Made by a program: the position numbers and the translations under genes. Shown here piece after piece: positions 17,485-62,152 of a stretch of DNA of 64,000 bases. The DNA is taken from contig JBBEBM010000047.1 in assembly GCA_040882355.1 (NCBI GenBank), positions 1 through 64,000 on the forward strand. The letters are read 5' to 3'. Each line of letters begins with the position of its first letter. Positions within the stretch are counted from its first letter, which is position 1. The DNA comes from Dehalococcoidia bacterium (GTDB lineage Bacteria > Chloroflexota > Dehalococcoidia > DSTF01 > RBG-16-68-14). The notes beneath the pieces were generated by a model. It saw only the letters and a program-made list of their open reading frames with translations. It made no database searches and had not been told where the DNA came from.

Positions 17485-18746
17485 TGACCGTCGAGGCACA
17501 GGCCGCGCCCGCCACGCCGGCCACAGGCGGACGCTTCGCCGCAGCGACTGATGCGCTCCACGTGCGCGACTTCCGGTTGCTCTGGCTGAACTCGCTCACG
17601 TTCTTCCTGGGGCGGAGCATGCAGATGGTGGCGGTGAGCTGGCTCGTCCTCGACATCACGGACTCGGCGGCGCTGGTGGGCGCGGCGCTCTTCGCGCAGG
17701 GGCTACCGCTCGCGCTGTTCTCGTTGCCTGCCGGCGTCTGGGCCGACCGGCTCGACAGGCGGCGGCTGCTCGTGGTCAGCCAGACGGTGTCGGTGGTGAT
17801 GACGGCTGTCCTCACGTTCCTGCTGCTGATCGACGCAGTCATGGTCTGGCAGATCTTCGTCATCGCGTTCGTCATGGGCACGGCGATGGCGCTCGGCCAG
17901 CCGAGCCGGCAGGCGCTGGTGCCGTCGCTGGTTGGGCCGGAGCGGCTGATGAACGCGATCGTGCTCAACAACCTGGTGCAAAACCTGTCGTTTGTCATTG
18001 GGCCGGCGCTGGCAGGCTTGCTGCTCGCGCAGATCGGCTTCGGCGGCACGTTCGTAGTGCAGGTCGGCCTGCTGGTGGCCGGACTGCCGTGGCTGCTGGC
18101 GATGCGCGTCCCGCCGATCGCTCACCAAACCGAGCGCGCGCCGCTGATGACGGAGCTACGCGAGGGCGTGTCGCATGTACTGGCGAGCCCGCTGGTACGC
18201 TCGCTGTTCATCGTCACAGCCTTCACGGGTATCTTCTATGTCGGGACGTACCAGGCGCTGTCGCCTGTCTTCGCTCGCGATATCCTCGATGTCGGCGCGC
18301 TGGGCCTCGGCTTCATGAACGCGGCCTTCGGGACGGGCATGTTCCTCGGCTCGATATTCATCGCCTCGCGCCGCAATCTCAACCGGAAGGGCGAGGTGCT
18401 GCTCGTGTCGCTGCTGACGGGCGCGCTGGTCTTCGGCGTCTTCGCGGCGTCACGCTGGTTCGCGCTGTCCGAGCTGGCGCTGCTGGCCTGGGGATTCGGC
18501 GCGGCGTTCTTCATGAACCTGACGATCACGCTGATCCAGGCGAACACGCCCGACCGCGTGATGGGGCGCGTGATGAGCGTCCAGGCGCTCTGCTTCTACG
18601 GCGTGAGCCCGATCGGCAACCTGTTGGGGGGTGTGCTTGCGGAAGTCGTGAGCGCGCCGTTCGCTGTCGTCGTGAGCAGCGTGGCGGTTGGGGTGCTGGC
18701 GATCTGGTACCTGCTGCGGCAGCCTGAACTGCGTGCGGCGAGCTAA
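17484..18746 (+). CDS. MFS transporter (MFS_3/H+ antiporter-like)
   Basis: RDFRLLW, GVWADRLDRRRLL, PSRQALVPSLV, MGRVMSV; 12 TM. Confidence 0.92.
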   Translation: MTVEAQAAPATPATGGRFAAATDALHVRDFRLLWLNSLTFFLGRSMQMVAVSWLVLDITDSAALVGAALFAQGLPLALFSLPAGVWADRLDRRRLLVVSQTVSVVMTAVLTFLLLIDAVMVWQIFVIAFVMGTAMALGQPSRQALVPSLVGPERLMNAIVLNNLVQNLSFVIGPALAGLLLAQIGFGGTFVVQVGLLVAGLPWLLAMRVPPIAHQTERAPLMTELREGVSHVLASPLVRSLFIVTAFTGIFYVGTYQALSPVFARDILDVGALGLGFMNAAFGTGMFLGSIFIASRRNLNRKGEVLLVSLLTGALVFGVFAASRWFALSELALLAWGFGAAFFMNLTITLIQANTPDRVMGRVMSVQALCFYGVSPIGNLLGGVLAEVVSAPFAVVVSSVAVGVLAIWYLLRQPELRAAS

Positions 18747-25371: not shown

Positions 25372-25857
25372 TCAGCCCTGTGTTGCTCGCATCCAGTCGC
25401 GCGTGACGCCAATGTGGCCGAGGTGCTCGTTCGCGTGCTCGATCACGTGGAAGAAGGCCTCGCGTACGGTGACGGGCTTGGGCGTGCCGGCGCCCCAAAG
25501 CGGAGCGGGCGGATCGCGCGTCTCCTCCAGCTCGGCCGGTCGCAGCTCACCGAGCGCATCCTCGAAGCGCCGGCCCAGCTCGCGAGCTTTCGCGACGATC
25601 GCCGACGCATCGGGCGCCGCTGAGCGGAACTCCGCGCCGCGGTCGCGCTCGACCGGCAGCTCGCAGGCGATGCCGAGCACCCAGGCCTCGGCGTTGCCCA
25701 GAATGTGCGTCGCGAGGACGTAGATGCTGTTCGTGCCGCCGGCGGGCGGGCGCCAGTTGAGCTGCGATTCGCTCAGCCCATCGACGGCGCGACAGACCTC
25801 ATCGAGGACGCGCTGCAGGCGGGCGAGGATGGTCGGGAGTTCAGCGGTCTCGGTCAT
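25372..25857 (-). CDS. DinB family (DUF664-like) protein, copy 1
   Basis: QLNWRP, NSIYVLATH, RDRGAEF, HANEHLGH. Confidence 0.85.
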   Translation of the reverse strand: MTETAELPTILARLQRVLDEVCRAVDGLSESQLNWRPPAGGTNSIYVLATHILGNAEAWVLGIACELPVERDRGAEFRSAAPDASAIVAKARELGRRFEDALGELRPAELEETRDPPAPLWGAGTPKPVTVREAFFHVIEHANEHLGHIGVTRDWMRATQG

Positions 25858-26791
25858 CGGAACGATCTGATTCTACAACACGGAGCGCCTCTCCCACCGG
25901 ATCGCCTGCGGTGACGTCGAGCCAGTGAATGCGCGGGTCGTCCGCGCGGAACCAGTTGGCCTGCATGCGGGCCAGTCGATGCGTCTCCGTCTTGATGCGG
26001 GCCGTCATCTCCTCTAGCGATAGCTCGCCGGCGAGGTGCTGGCAGGCCTGCCGGTAGCCGATGCTCGACATCGCCGGCAGATCGCAGCCGTAGCCCCGAT
26101 CGATCATACCGCGCACTTCGTCGACAAGGCCCGCCTCGATCATCGCGTCGACGCGGGTGTCGATGCGGCGATAGAGCTCGTCGCGTGGGCAGGCGAGGCC
26201 GATGACTGTGAAAGAGAAGTCGGGCGGCGTGCGCGTCTGGCACGACGAGAGCGGGCGGCCGGTGCGCCGGTAAACCTCGAGCGCGCGCATCACCCGACGC
26301 GTGTTCCGCAGGTCGATGCGTTCGGCATATGCGGGGTCGACGCGGCGCAGCTCATCGACGAGCGGCCCCGCCCCTTCGCGCGCGACGAGCGCCTCCAGTT
26401 CCGCGCGCAGCGACGGGTCGGGCGGCACACGTGGCACCTGCCAGCCTTCGAGCAGCGCCCAGGCGTACTGGCCGGTGCCGCCGACAAGGAACGGCAGAAC
26501 ACGACGCGACCAGCAGCCTTCGAACGCCTCGCGCGCCAGGTCGAGGTAGCGGCCGAGGCTGAACGGCTCGTCCGGCTCCGCGAGGTCGATGAGGTGGTGC
26601 GGGACGCGAGCGCGCTCTTCGGGCGACGGCTTCGCGGTGCCGATGTCCATGCCGCGATAGACGAGGCGCGAGTCGGCGTTGACGATCTCGCCCCTGAGCC
26701 GCTCGGCGAGCGCCAGGGCGAGCGCCGACTTGCCGGACGCGGTCGCCCCGACGATGGCGATGAGGCGGCGGGGCGAGGAGAGATCGGACAT
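25841..26791 (-). CDS. miaA: tRNA (adenosine(37)-N6)-dimethylallyltransferase
   Basis: GATASGKS, NADSRLVYRGMDIGTAKP, PHHLID, VGGTGQY, SIGYRQ. Confidence 0.96.
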   Translation of the reverse strand: MSDLSSPRRLIAIVGATASGKSALALALAERLRGEIVNADSRLVYRGMDIGTAKPSPEERARVPHHLIDLAEPDEPFSLGRYLDLAREAFEGCWSRRVLPFLVGGTGQYAWALLEGWQVPRVPPDPSLRAELEALVAREGAGPLVDELRRVDPAYAERIDLRNTRRVMRALEVYRRTGRPLSSCQTRTPPDFSFTVIGLACPRDELYRRIDTRVDAMIEAGLVDEVRGMIDRGYGCDLPAMSSIGYRQACQHLAGELSLEEMTARIKTETHRLARMQANWFRADDPRIHWLDVTAGDPVGEALRVVESDRSDDRDR

Positions 26792-26812
26792 GACATAACC
26801 CACTCTTTGCCG

Positions 26813-26885
26813 GACAGGCTTCAGCCTGTCGGAGGGCGGGGCTGCCTAAAGATACCGCAGCCCGAGGCTGGAAAGCCTCGGCTAC
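26813..26885. repeat. REP-like palindrome doublet (GTAG type)
   Basis: GACAGGCT-TC-AGCCTGTC and CCGAGGCT-GGAA-AGCCTCGG-CTAC (GTAG on minus strand). Confidence 0.6.
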
Positions 26886-26899
26886 GTGTTGCTCATATG

Positions 26900-26952
26900 G
26901 TCTGCGGGTTGTCGCCGGAGGCGACTCGCCTGGGCGAGAAACCCTCAGCTTC
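26900..26952 (+). repeat. Palindromic repeat interrupted by a 27-nt insert (26912-26938)
   Basis: Flanks rejoin to a 26-mer matching 44304-44329 at 23/26 positions. Confidence 0.75.
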
Positions 26953-26986
26953 AACCTAGAGGGGATTGAACGGAACGAGCCGACCG

Positions 26987-27793
26987 TTACTCGCCGATCA
27001 AGCCGATGTACCGTTCAGCGGAGCGTTCGACGGCTTCGCCGGCGCCCGAGTCGATCAACGTATGCCACCAGCCGCCGTAGAGGCGGTCGAACGGGTAGGG
27101 CTCGATCGCGGCAACGATGGTGTCGATCGTGGCAGCTGGCAGCGGCAGCATGTTGGGGTAGCTCCACATGAAGCTGACGAACCGCCGGTCCTGCACGACC
27201 TGGATGCTGTCGCCCGTAAGCAGGGCGCCGCGACCTTCCGCGCCGGCGGCCCAGTGGATGACGGTGCTGCCTTCGAAGTGGCCGCCCGTCTGGATCAGCG
27301 TCACGCCGGGCACCAACTCGACCACGCCCTCGAAGTGACGCACCGCCGGGTCGGGTCTCGTGATCCATTCCGCGTCAGCCTCCGGGATGTGGACCGGCGC
27401 ATCGAAGGCGCGCGCCCACTCAATCATCGCGCCGTAGAAGTGCGGGTGCGACACCGCGATCGCGGCGATGCCGCCGAGCGCGCGCACCTGAGCGATCGCC
27501 TCGTTGTCGATGTAGCCGATGCAGTCCCAGAGCACGTTGCCCTGCGGCGTCTGCACCAGCAGCCCGCGCTGCCCGATGCCGAGGAACGGCTCGATGCCGA
27601 TGCCGGTCAGGCCGGGCTCGTGGTCGCGCAGGGCGTTCTTGTAGCCCTGCGCCTTCAACTCGGCAAGCGTCGTCCACTGCTGGCCGGCCCAGTTGACGTA
27701 CTGGCGCTCGTCCTCGCAGATGATGCAGCGCTCCGGCGGCTGCTCGCTCGGGGCGTACTGGACGGCGCAGGTGCGGCAGATGTAGGCGTCCAC
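26987..27793 (-). CDS. MBL-fold metallo-hydrolase with N-terminal Cys cluster
   Basis: CRTC..CIICEDERQYV, IGQR, LWDC, SHPHFY, GGHFEG, FMWSYPN. Confidence 0.88.
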   Translation of the reverse strand: MDAYICRTCAVQYAPSEQPPERCIICEDERQYVNWAGQQWTTLAELKAQGYKNALRDHEPGLTGIGIEPFLGIGQRGLLVQTPQGNVLWDCIGYIDNEAIAQVRALGGIAAIAVSHPHFYGAMIEWARAFDAPVHIPEADAEWITRPDPAVRHFEGVVELVPGVTLIQTGGHFEGSTVIHWAAGAEGRGALLTGDSIQVVQDRRFVSFMWSYPNMLPLPAATIDTIVAAIEPYPFDRLYGGWWHTLIDSGAGEAVERSAERYIGLIGE

Positions 27794-27794
27794 G

Positions 27795-27899
27795 CTTTGT
27801 CACCCTGAGCGAAGCGAAGGGTCTTGCCTCGCCCCTAGCACCGACGGATGCTCCGCGGAGTCTATCCTGAGCGACAGTGAAGGGCTCAGCATGACAAAG
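27795..27899. repeat. Composite inverted-repeat element (TGTCA..CTGAGCGAAGCGAAGG ... GCTCAG..TGACA) with nested internal copy
   Basis: Arms CTTTGTCACCCTGAGC / GCTCAGCATGACAAAG; internal CCTGAGCGACAGTGAAGGG; related half copy at 45067-45102. Confidence 0.75.
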
Positions 27900-27904
27900 G
27901 CGAT

Positions 27905-28672
27905 CTACGCCTTCGCGTCCGCCGCGGCCTGGACGATGGCGGCGAAGGCATCGGCGTCCAGGCTGGCACCGCCGACGAGGGCGCCGTCGATCTCCGGCTG
28001 CGCGACGAACTCAGCGATGTTCTCGGCCTTCACCGAGCCGCCGTACTGGATGCGCGTCTCCTGCGCGATCTGTTCGCCGAACAGGCCACTGAGGAGCGCC
28101 CGGATGGAGCCGACCGTCTCGTTCGCCTGCGCGCCCGTCGCGGCAAGGCCGGTGCCGATCGCCCAGACGGGCTCGTACGCCACGATGCAGTCGGCGGTCC
28201 AGGGCACGCCGGCGAGGCCCCACTGCATCTGGGTCTTGAGCACCTCCTGCGTGCGACCAGCGGCGCGCTCCTCCTTCGTCTCGCCGACGCAGAAGATCGG
28301 CGTTAGGCCGTAGGCCAGCGCCGCCTTGAGGCGGCTGTTCACAGTGGCGTCGGTCTCGCAGAAGTACTGGCGCCGCTCGGAGTGCCCGACGATGACGCAG
28401 TCGACCAGGCCGCGCAGCATGAGCGGGCTCACCTCGCCGGTAAAGGCGCCCTGCGGCTCCCAATGGACGTTCTGCGCGCCCAGGGCGATGCTGGAGCCTT
28501 CGAGCGCTGCCTTTGCGTCCCGCAGGAACGGGAAGGGCGGGCAGATCGCCTTGTCGACGCCTGCGATCCCGTCGATGCGCTCGCGCACGGCGCGGCAGAG
28601 CGCGACGCACTCATCGGCGGTCGTGTACATCTTCCAGTTGCCCGCGATTACAGGGGTTCGAGTGTCTGTCAT
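27905..28672 (-). CDS. tpiA: Triose-phosphate isomerase
   Basis: AGNWKM, GHSERR, AYEPVWAIGTG, YGGSV, LVGGASL. Confidence 0.98.
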   Translation of the reverse strand: MTDTRTPVIAGNWKMYTTADECVALCRAVRERIDGIAGVDKAICPPFPFLRDAKAALEGSSIALGAQNVHWEPQGAFTGEVSPLMLRGLVDCVIVGHSERRQYFCETDATVNSRLKAALAYGLTPIFCVGETKEERAAGRTQEVLKTQMQWGLAGVPWTADCIVAYEPVWAIGTGLAATGAQANETVGSIRALLSGLFGEQIAQETRIQYGGSVKAENIAEFVAQPEIDGALVGGASLDADAFAAIVQAAADAKA

Positions 28673-44025: not shown

Positions 44026-44316
44026 ATGAAGTTCACTGTTGTCCTGGCACCCGAAGCCGACGGCGGCTACTCCGTCATTTGTCCGGCGATCCAGGGCTGC
44101 GTGAGCCAGGGCGATTCGCTGGATGAGGCGCTCGCCAATATCAGGGAGGCGGTGCTGTTATGCATGGAGGTGCGCGGCGAGGACGGCCTGCCGGTGCCCG
44201 TTGAGACGCCGGAGATCATCGCGCGCGAGATCCAGGAGTGCCTCGAGTTCCGGGCGGAGGACGGCAGACCGATGACGATCGAGACGCGAGAGGTGGTTGT
44301 CCCGTCTGCGGGATGA
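44026..44316 (+). CDS. HicB family antitoxin
   Basis: DGGYSVICPAIQGCVSQGDSLDEALANIREA. Confidence 0.88.
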   Translation: MKFTVVLAPEADGGYSVICPAIQGCVSQGDSLDEALANIREAVLLCMEVRGEDGLPVPVETPEIIAREIQECLEFRAEDGRPMTIETREVVVPSAG

Positions 44317-44329
44317 ACCCCGCAGCTTC
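44304..44329 (+). repeat. Palindromic repeat GTCTGCGGG-ATGAAC-CCCGCAG-CTTC (uninterrupted form of 26900-26952)
   Basis: CTGCGGG/CCCGCAG stem; 23/26 identity to the rejoined 26900-26952 flanks. Confidence 0.7.
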
Positions 44330-60802: not shown

Positions 60803-62152
60803 ATGTCGAGTATCCTCTCCCCTGCGGCCAGCCTAGAGCCCGCGCTGAGCGATATCCTCGGCGGCGCCCTGACGTCGGGCGACGCGTCTTACGCAGTGGA
60901 CGGCCTCGTTGCGACCTTCGTTGCGGCGCCCGGGTCGGCCGAGCAGATCGCGGCGGCGCTCGCGGCGGCCGATGAGCACGGCGCAGCGGTCGTTCCCTGG
61001 GGCGCCGGGCGCCACATGGCGCTGGGCAACGTACCGCGGCGGTACGACCTTGCCCTCAGCACGACGAAGCTCGACCGCGTCGTCGAGTACGAGCCTGCCG
61101 ACCTTGTGTTGACGGTCGAGGCGGGCATGACGATGGGCCAGCTCCAGGCGCTGCTCGCGGAGCATCGCCAGTTCCTGCCGATAGATGCGCCGCCGGAGGC
61201 GACGGTCGGCGGACTGCTCGCGGCAGGCGTAAGCGGGCCATCGCGCCACGCGTACGGTCTGCCGCGCGACTGGCTGATCGGCTGTCGCGTCGCGCACGTC
61301 GACGGCACGATCTCGAAGGGTGGCGGTCGCGTCGTGAAGAACGTCGCGGGCTACGACCTCCCGAAGCTCGCGATCGGTTCGCTGGGCACCCTGGGCGTGA
61401 TCGTGGAGGCGACGGTCAAGGTGGCGCCGCTTCCGCCAAGGCACGAGACGGCCTTCGTCACGTGTGCGTCGCTGGAGGCGGCCGGCGCGCTCGTCTCCGC
61501 CGCCGACGATCGCGGCCTGGCGCTGCGCGCCGTCGCGATCGCCGACGTCGCGGCAGCGAGCGCGCTGCTCAACGTGCCGTTCGCCGGGGCTGCGCTTGCC
61601 GGGTTCTGGCTCGCCGGGCCTGCGTCGGCGGTCGAACGCACGCGCCGGGAGCTGGGCCAGCTCGGTGGCGAGACGCAGCGGCTCGACGACGCGGCGTCCG
61701 AGCAGTGGTGGGCGCAACTGAGCGAGCCGAATGTTGTCGAAAGCGCGATGACGCTTCGAGCGTCGCTCACGCCTACCAGCGTCGTGGAGTTCATGCGCCA
61801 CCTCGCCGAGATCGGGCGCGAGCTGGGCGTGAGCATCGCCACCGTCGCCTACCCGACGACCGGCCTCGTCCTCGCGAGCGTGGCCGAGGCGCCGCCGGGC
61901 GAGCTCGTGAGGATCGTCGAGCGCGCGCGCAAGTTCGCAGTCGAGGCAGGCGGCACGCTCGTGATCACATCAGCGCCCGTCGATGTGAGGAAGCGTATCA
62001 ATGTATGGGGCGACCCTTCGGCGGGCTCCCGCCCAGGCGAGTCTGCGACAGGGCAGGCTCCTGGCAGCGCCCTATCGCTGATGCGACGCGTCAAGGAGCA
62101 GTTCGATCCACGCGGCACGATCAATCCGGGCCGCTTCATGGGAGGGCTGTAG
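60803..62152 (+). CDS. glcE: Glycolate oxidase FAD-binding subunit with 15-aa repeat-derived insert
   Basis: EYEPADL, ATVGG, GGRVVKNVAGYDLPKL.IGSLGTLG, KEQFDP...NPGR. Confidence 0.9.
   Translation: MSSILSPAASLEPALSDILGGALTSGDASYAVDGLVATFVAAPGSAEQIAAALAAADEHGAAVVPWGAGRHMALGNVPRRYDLALSTTKLDRVVEYEPADLVLTVEAGMTMGQLQALLAEHRQFLPIDAPPEATVGGLLAAGVSGPSRHAYGLPRDWLIGCRVAHVDGTISKGGGRVVKNVAGYDLPKLAIGSLGTLGVIVEATVKVAPLPPRHETAFVTCASLEAAGALVSAADDRGLALRAVAIADVAAASALLNVPFAGAALAGFWLAGPASAVERTRRELGQLGGETQRLDDAASEQWWAQLSEPNVVESAMTLRASLTPTSVVEFMRHLAEIGRELGVSIATVAYPTTGLVLASVAEAPPGELVRIVERARKFAVEAGGTLVITSAPVDVRKRINVWGDPSAGSRPGESATGQAPGSALSLMRRVKEQFDPRGTINPGRFMGGL
62015..62059 (+). repeat. In-frame composite repeat insertion in glcE (PSAGS-RPGESAT-GQA)
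   Basis: CCTTCGGCGGGCTC[CCGCCCAGGCGAGTCTGCGAC]AGGGCAGGCT; 14-nt core identical to the reverse complement of 26923-26936. Confidence 0.75.

Follow-up and report, generated by a model that had tools for sequence, protein, structure and literature searches.

The locus at 26900-26952 raises the question whether a piece of only 27 nt can be a genetic unit in its own right, and how such a piece came to stand within the loop of a hairpin repeat. The window, by which we mean the whole 64,000-nt stretch of DNA analysed here (G000:C47:1-64000), belongs to a draft genome of 3.33 Mb in 82 contigs with a G+C content of 67% (G000). An initial annotation of the window had described the locus as a palindromic repeat interrupted by a 27-nt insert, had pointed to 44304-44329 as the corresponding empty form, and had recognised the insert as a double hairpin. 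All three descriptions are borne out, including the coordinates, the match at 23 of 26 positions and the pairing of both hairpins (Table 1).

The site, its empty counterpart and the host repeat

The 27-nt double hairpin (hereafter the module) is placed between the T and the GAA of the TGAA loop of a hairpin repeat that we call class E. Removal of the 27 nt leaves a 26-mer that is identical at 23/26 positions to 44304-44329; this is the sole match of the 26-mer in the window at three or fewer mismatches, and 0 of 100 shuffles gave any. Because a G is present at both edges of the module, the insertion point can be written as T^GAA or as TG^AA, which amounts to an ambiguity of one base. Repeats that hold the module in their loop are referred to as filled, and uninterrupted ones as empty.

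Table 1. Features of the window, outer-stem classes of the filled repeats in G000, and the two loop states of the host repeats in three Planctomycetota genomes.
Feature	Position or genome	Strand	Short loop	Long loop	Remarks
Class-E hairpin, 5' arm GTCTGCGGGTT	26900-26910	+			Arm common to uninterrupted copies
27-nt module: hairpin 1 GTCGCC-GGA-GGCGAC, hairpin 2 TCGCC-TG-GGCGA	26911-26937	+			From genome-wide copies, other genomes and folding
Loop remainder GAA, class-E 3' arm and tail (ACCCTCAGCTTC)	26938-26952	+			
Uninterrupted class-E hairpin GTCTGCGGGA-TGAA-CCCCGCAGCTTC	44304-44329	+			
Neighbouring hairpin repeat of another class, GACAGGC-TGAA-GCCTGTC	26813-26830	-			Minus-strand reading
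Neighbouring REP, CCGAGGCT-GGAA-AGCCTCGG-CTAC	26862-26885	+			GGAA loop, CTAC tail
Family B repeat: hairpin 2 and shortened hairpin 1 of the module	62014-62059	-			In frame in GlcE-like ORF 60803-62152
Outer stem GTCTGCGGGAT or GGGTT	G000				Filled repeats, class E
Outer stem GTCGGGC...GCCCGAC-CCGC	G000				Filled repeats
Outer stem GTCAGGC...GCCTGAC	G000				Filled repeats
Outer stem GCCGGGC...GCCTGGC-CTTCGG	G000				Filled repeats
Outer stem of one class with end GGCCCGGCCTAC	G000				Filled repeats
Host GACCGGCT-GGAA-AGCCGGTC-CCAC	G094		61	31 (30 with +27 nt, 1 degenerate)	8 spans of two neighbouring repeats
Host CCGGGCCA-GGA-TGGCCCGG	G095		29	6 (+27 nt)	1 unrelated loop
Host GACGGGCA-AGA-TGCCCGTC	G096		4	7 (+27 nt)	No other loops

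The filled repeat lies inside a spacer of 183 nt between two genes on the minus strand, a miaA-like ORF (25841-26803) and an ORF with a metallo-beta-lactamase fold (26987-27793). In this spacer (26804-26986), three hairpin-repeat classes adjoin one another in a BIME-like mosaic. Many other genomes of the order, G012, G017, G021, G028 and G030 among them, contain the REP class at 26862-26885 (GGAA loop, CTAC tail) as stretches of 24-29 nt with 100% identity, a degree of conservation that is unusual for a REP. The uninterrupted hairpin at 44304-44329 overlaps the 3' end of a HicB-like antitoxin ORF (44026-44316), and since the TGA of its TGAA loop is the stop codon of this ORF, the repeat provides the final codons and the stop. 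In four DNA sequencing runs of one study, covered as contigs, no skip or indel of 27 nt across 26911-26937 is seen among the joints listed; the only long piece listed over the site possibly derives from the source run itself, and these data are uninformative on polymorphism. No RNA run containing the region was listed. A metagenome scan for the unique sequence to the left of the site yielded 0 matches.

Class E follows the consensus GTCTGCGGGA-TGAA-TCCCGCAGCTTC. The uninterrupted 26-mer has 21 copies in G000 at no more than 5/26 mismatches (14 at no more than three), besides which there are about seven filled copies. Stem variants compensate each other across the arms (GGGAT/ATCCC, GGGTT/AACCC, GCGTT/AACGC and GGCAT/ATGCC), and a 3' tail, CTTCCAGGAGA, is common to several copies. 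G000 has 106 perfect 7-bp hairpins whose loop is TGAA; TAAA accounts for 40, and eight other tetraloops for 4-21 each. TAAA/TTTA is the second over-represented loop type of this genome. The TGAA-loop hairpins comprise more than 15 stem classes, many of them with a CTAC tail, which on the other strand reads GTAG, the mark of classical REPs. Class E itself has no GTAG at the foot of the hairpin and ends in GCTTC (GAAGC on the other strand), whereas other classes of G000 end in CTAC.

A family search found three Y1 (HUH) transposase genes in G000. One of these (C50:1602-1949) has class-E hairpins on both sides, in both orientations and in the empty form; its protein scores 85.9 bits against the NCBI IS200 model (cut-off 55) and 35.8 bits against the RAYT model (cut-off 80). 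Another, on C32, encodes a protein that passes the RAYT model with 105 bits, and adjoins three copies of CCGAGGCT-GGAA-AGCCTCGG-CTAC, the class that is also present in the spacer. In relatives, further Y1 genes are flanked by TGAA-loop classes of their own, some of which are classes of G000. Class E is a short imperfect palindrome with many, mostly intergenic copies, as REPs are, and of the 15 filled repeats of the genome 14 are intergenic by crude gene calls. The host of the 27-nt module is a Y1-associated, REP-like hairpin repeat.

Elsewhere in G000, a tandem repeat of ~193 bp (C61:9319-9722) has as its unit a class-E hairpin together with a GGCGACC-TGAA-GGTCGCC-GCTAC hairpin. The class ACAGAGC...GCTCTGT has 34 nt between its arms in 12 cases and 4 nt in 21, according to a noisy loop-length histogram (7-mer arms, at most one mismatch) that is dominated by background and from which only this spacing was taken; the 34-nt spacing may represent another nested or dimer form.

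The module as a discrete unit, in G000 and beyond

With its loops masked, the module can be written as GTCGCC-N3-GGCGAC-TCGCC-N2-GGCGAGA, a pattern of 24 fixed positions that has 12 copies in G000 at no more than 3/24 mismatches, against 0-1 for six controls with shuffled arms. Degenerate ones included, about 15 repeats of this genome are filled, and in 11 of the 15 at least five contiguous outer base pairs abut the module. The outer stems fall into at least five classes (Table 1), all of which carry the module between T and GAA and in one orientation; in the filled copy at C78:18075, the class-E consensus and its tail are matched at every base outside the insert. The core that the initial annotation had described as common to both sites is a 14-mer present exactly at 26923 (+) and 62030 (-). 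At two or fewer mismatches its frequency in the window is at chance level (4 matches against 3.1 expected, a count reached by 40 of 100 shuffles), whereas a genome-wide search yielded seven exact copies, more than the two of the window, where a first-order Markov model predicts 0.25. The 27 nt form a unit of their own, separate from the host repeat.

The occurrence at 62030 is of another nature. It had been taken for a 21-nt sibling that interrupts a different repeat at 62028-62049, but its bases are integral to Family B, a repeat of roughly 45 nt with seven copies in G000 (CCTGYCCTGTCGCAGACTCGCCTGGGCGAGAGCYTGYCGAAGGG). In other genomes the Family B carrier holds a complete module, and therefore the copies of G000 share a shortened hairpin 1. 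The supposed common target TG^A does not stand either, CTG^AGC at ~62030 not being a shared target, and the observation that both lengths are multiples of three applies to the 27-nt unit and not to a 21-nt one. The ORF that contains this repeat encodes a GlcE-like protein with an FAD-binding domain, in which 15-16 extra residues (SAGSRPGESATGQAP) are found that nine of nine aligned orthologues of the same family do not have. This gene comparison is a true case of filled versus empty, for the ~45-nt carrier and not for the 21-nt piece.

The module consists of two small and nearly identical tandem hairpins, GTCGCC-N3-GGCGAC and TCGCC-N2-GGCGA. It is a near-palindrome, the orientation of which is shown by the loop lengths (three, then two), by the central base and by the T of the GTCTCC form. 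This form, GTCTCC/GGCGAC, is the most common across phyla and gives hairpin 1 a conserved T-C mismatch. The first loop reads G-N-A in 76 of 140 copies and A-N-A in 37, and its third letter is A in 126; G-N-A triloops are stable in DNA. The stems diverge from their consensus by ~6% and the loop letters vary, a contrast that is partly built in by searches that fixed the stems. Folding of the element as single-stranded DNA is predicted to yield -16.6 kcal/mol on either strand, with z of -3.6 and -4.0. The predicted structure is one long hairpin in which the four module arms pair crosswise, the alternative being a three-way junction with two small hairpins. The long hairpin would need the variable loops to pair, for which one position pair is enriched (70% versus 55%, 0 of 500 shuffles), an enrichment that related copies can also produce. 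An Rfam search of 26000-28000 on both strands (E of 10 or less) gave over the element only a 16-bit match to PrrB/RsmZ, which is at chance level (gathering score 44). The orientation of filled repeats to their flanking genes is mixed, with two sense and six antisense among eight co-directional gene pairs (crude gene calls).

Across the order to which the genome of the window belongs, the module pattern occurs in 7 of the 93 genomes, a tally that includes the unpublished G051 (0 modules), and its reversed-pattern control in none. At two or fewer mismatches, there are 10 copies in G000 and 20 in G040. In a scan of one genome per species, exact copies were present in more than 122 loci, which is a lower bound; the record titles among the loci listed belong to Planctomycetota (Phycisphaerae, Lacipirellula, Bythopirellula), Chloroflexota/Dehalococcoidia and Nitrospirota/Thermodesulfovibrionales. 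At one mismatch or fewer, 58 copies were counted in G094, 30 in G095, 11 in G096, 37 in G097 and 9 in G093, with controls of 0. At several loci (L083, L096, L105, L142, L162, L164, L173, L176 and L177), a filled hairpin centres a longer conserved repeat in which ~20 nt or more are common on each side. Among 2.9 million viral contigs there were only three matches to the module, so that phage are not an evident carrier.

G094, G095 and G096 are Planctomycetota genomes, each of which has a hairpin repeat of its own that exists both with and without the 27 nt (Table 1). The G094 pattern permitted any loop of 1-31 nt, and intermediate lengths could therefore have been found; reversed-pattern controls gave 0 for G094 and G095 and one per strand for G096. 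In the filled copies of these three genomes, the 27 nt stand directly 5' of the loop GA and in a single orientation. The insertion contexts across host families are T^GAA, G^GAA, G^GA and A^GA, which on the opposite strand places the module 3' of TTC or ATC. About nine unrelated host families, found in G000, in G094-G096 and in one copy of G040 (L032), have the same site and orientation; the copies of any one genome are related to each other, so that events cannot be read from copy numbers, and about nine is the number of independent host families. Of the earlier proposal of a micro-element residing in REP-like hairpins, what endures is the REP-like, Y1-flanking host and the discrete unit in at least five classes and in three Planctomycetota genomes, while the sibling is lost.

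Hairpin loops are one setting of the module among several. Among 114 distinct cross-phylum flank pairs, 29% form a stem of at least 6 bp at the module edges, compared with a mean of 8.7% and a maximum of 15% in shuffles, and it follows that most copies lie outside such hairpin loops. The other contexts are short tandem repeats, the inside of another module and coding sequence, the last exemplified in G097 by a position after the DEDD domain of an IS110-type gene and by one at the end of nuoA. The preference for flanking bases is weak, with G or T before the module and A or G after its last G. At locus L220 (G097:C169), the module at 17897-17924 directly follows the DEDD domain of the IS110-type transposase ORF, the frame of which is open for 423 codons; the alignment of the L220 protein with the IS621 structure is too distant to define a clean insertion. 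At L159, L117, L125, L172, L175 and L091, the module lies within tandem-repeat arrays of ~6-8 nt, the sequence of which is genome-specific and in some cases GGA-rich, and at L120 and L167 it is seemingly inserted in hairpin 2 of another module.

Direction of change and the search for a moving enzyme

We consider it probable, with moderate confidence, that 26900-26952 is a class-E repeat with a separate 27-nt unit at its loop tip, and that this unit entered by an insertion specific for site and strand. The host repeat would probably have been a folded single strand when the module inserted, and apart from the one ambiguous base no target sequence would have been duplicated; the filled hairpin would then have been copied together with its host repeat. 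A cut-and-join reaction on single-stranded DNA, in the style of HUH enzymes, would fit this anatomy best. Insertion is favoured because the host classes are found widely among relatives that lack the module, because the module occurs in many contexts other than hairpins, and because one sequence is common to otherwise unrelated hosts. The host repeat classes or close variants of them adjoin Y1 genes in relatives with 0-2 modules, and Family B, itself a module carrier, is an insertion when compared with nine of nine orthologues. We further put forward, as a tentative proposal that is possible and yet open to considerable doubt, that the 27-nt double hairpin may be the smallest site-specific mobile DNA yet seen: a parasite that would integrate at folded hairpin tips 5' of GA, would have spread among Chloroflexota, Planctomycetota and Nitrospirota, and would depend for its movement on an enzyme of single-stranded DNA that has yet to be classed as a transposase.

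The initial annotation had proposed a comparison of relatives for filled and empty alleles of the 27 nt at one orthologous site. None was found among the relatives compared, and because no orthologous site is at hand with and without the 27 nt, we infer the direction of change (insertion or precise excision). The genus of the window genome contains no other genome, and its nearest relatives, ~77% identical in the flanking genes, are without the entire repeat cluster. In G003 the two flanking genes are ~39 nt apart with no repeats, and in most other relatives they are not adjacent. In the orthologous comparison of two related Planctomycetota genomes, G094 and G098, similarity stops exactly at the start of the repeat cluster, and this gene-order break makes the comparison uninformative.

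The reverse direction would have the long form as the ancestral one: the hairpin repeats would have borne the double hairpin from the beginning, and exact removal of 27 nt would have produced the short forms. The restriction of each family to only two states is equally expected from precise excision, and in G096 filled copies exceed empty ones (7 versus 4). We nevertheless regard this course of events as unlikely, since the same host classes occur in relatives with no or almost no module, the module is also found outside hairpin loops, the module is nearly identical between phyla whose outer stems are unrelated, and the hairpins beside the C50 Y1 gene are of the empty form. Moreover, one base of flanking repeat would be a poor substrate for loss by slippage.

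Insertion, the direction that we prefer, calls for an enzyme, and the earlier suggestion was mobilisation in trans by a RAYT or IS200-type Y1 transposase, for which the two like hairpins of a mini-element would serve as left and right ends. The tandem arrangement of the two hairpins, the lack of target duplication, the fixed orientation relative to a short asymmetric target, the conserved T-C mismatch in hairpin 1 of the commonest form and a first loop that is most often G-N-A all agree with such an enzyme, and Y1 genes are present in G000 and in G093-G096. The distribution of genes and modules, however, is against it. Only 1 of 34 Y1 loci (103 kb) has a module within ~1.5 kb, namely one complete module 1.4 kb from the gene, beyond which no single module-type hairpin occurs in the 34 loci. 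Of the 93 genomes of the order, 71 have Y1 genes and 7 have the module. Two module-rich genomes have no PF01797 match: G040, with 20 copies (84% complete, so that absence is unproven), and G097, with 37 (completeness not given); in the genus of G040, none of three genomes has such a match, one of them being 94% complete. In addition, a single base between the hairpins seems too short for a transposase dimer, judging by the IS608 structures. We therefore hold mobilisation by RAYT or Y1 proteins to be improbable, and this part of the initial annotation is not upheld.

No gene was found to be tied to the module, as neither Y1 nor IS110-type genes co-occur with it; IS110-type genes are absent from G000, G040, G094 and G095, and one is present in G097. 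Paired modules in G097 were considered as the ends of an autonomous element and rejected as such, since the pairs enclose ordinary genes (e.g. nuoA and nuoB) and no transposase. With PATEs the module shares orientation-specific insertion at a short fixed target without duplication, seen in about nine host families save for one ambiguous G, but not end hairpins like those of a Y1-encoding element, according to the 34 Y1 loci. It does not qualify as a MITE, which combines terminal inverted repeats with a target-site duplication of at least 2 bp; filled and empty forms, when compared, show no duplication. All elements known to us to be moved by HUH transposases are far larger than 27 nt.

A selected function could account for the module with no insertion reaction of its own, if it were a binding site or a structured DNA or RNA element under host selection that spread by repeat recombination and gene transfer. 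Its stems are near-identical across phyla and more conserved than the loops, and it folds well on both strands. Against this stand the tens of copies per genome in unrelated places, coding sequence included, the patchy distribution over the order, the lack of a preferred orientation to genes and the lack of a matching Rfam family; the few shared loop bases, in turn, would offer no homology for recombination to the same base in unrelated hairpins. We give this explanation little credence and deem it very unlikely. Chance resemblance of G+C-rich palindromes, to which the count of inexact 14-mers in the window and the many possible pairings searched for the initial annotation might have pointed, is refuted by the seven exact 14-mers against 0.25 expected, by the module-pattern controls of 0-1 and by the same 27 nt at the same loop base in four genomes.

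Known systems compared

Few repeats of bacterial genomes are as abundant as REPs, or as little understood, and a second, much smaller unit that keeps to one fixed base of their loops in several phyla hints at a reaction in which the tips of folded hairpins are recognised. Should the module be mobile, mobile DNA would extend to a smaller size than previously known; a hairpin with or without 27 nt would then be a simple readout for finding the enzyme, which would also be attractive for inserting DNA at hairpin loops. Should it be a selected binding site, it marks a factor common to distant phyla. In both cases the module accounts for length variants among REP-like repeats, which annotation pipelines would otherwise assign to unrelated families.

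A close parallel to the host repeats is the REP/BIME system with its Y1 proteins (RAYT, REPtrons, REPINs), with which they share short and mostly intergenic palindromes, many copies, several classes and mosaics such as the one formed by three classes at 26804-26986. The repeats of G000 often have a GTAG head (the CTAC tail as read here), copies lie beside Y1 genes, and the C32 protein passes the RAYT model. Class E differs in that it has no GTAG head and that its neighbouring Y1 protein scores as IS200-type and not as RAYT.

Elements of the IS200/IS605 family and the gene-less PATEs resemble the module in their subterminal hairpins, in the absence of target duplication and in their orientation-specific position next to a short one-strand target. 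They differ from it in that the module is 27 nt long and that no Y1 gene is flanked by module-type hairpins. In IS608, cleavage and guide sequences lie outside the hairpins, and the module has no room for them. IS1397, ISKpn1, ISPpu9/10 and IS621 are insertion sequences that target REPs, some of them at the loop. Such insertion sequences are kilobase elements with their own transposase, in contrast to the module, which has no gene.

Family B recalls the Rickettsia palindromic elements and REPs that are in frame, as it adds 15-16 codons to the GlcE-like protein and keeps the frame; this likeness concerns the carrier at 62030 and not the 27-nt unit at 26911. In-frame insertion of REPs into genes has been described (Di Nocera et al., 2013; PMC3733652).

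The nesting of palindromes within palindromes has itself been documented. Three species, Anabaena variabilis, Thermomicrobium roseum and Halothiobacillus neapolitanus, regularly have REPs or REP dimers nested in other palindromes, and hundreds of unoccupied target palindromes have been reported in T. roseum (Di Nocera et al., 2013; PMC3733652). In those cases the REP is the guest and a lineage-specific palindrome the host. In the present case it is a REP-like hairpin that receives the guest, a single 27-nt sequence that occurs in several phyla and at a fixed loop base. Loop bases are known to matter for some REP transposases and not for that of E. coli (Corneloup et al., 2021; PMC8266576). A 27-nt loop module common to several classes and phyla is not described in the available text of these two papers (PMC3733652, PMC8266576), and its 11-base core string did not occur in a search of literature text. 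Nested REP/BIME mosaics are thus known, and what is new is a 27-nt guest at a fixed loop base of REP-like hosts.
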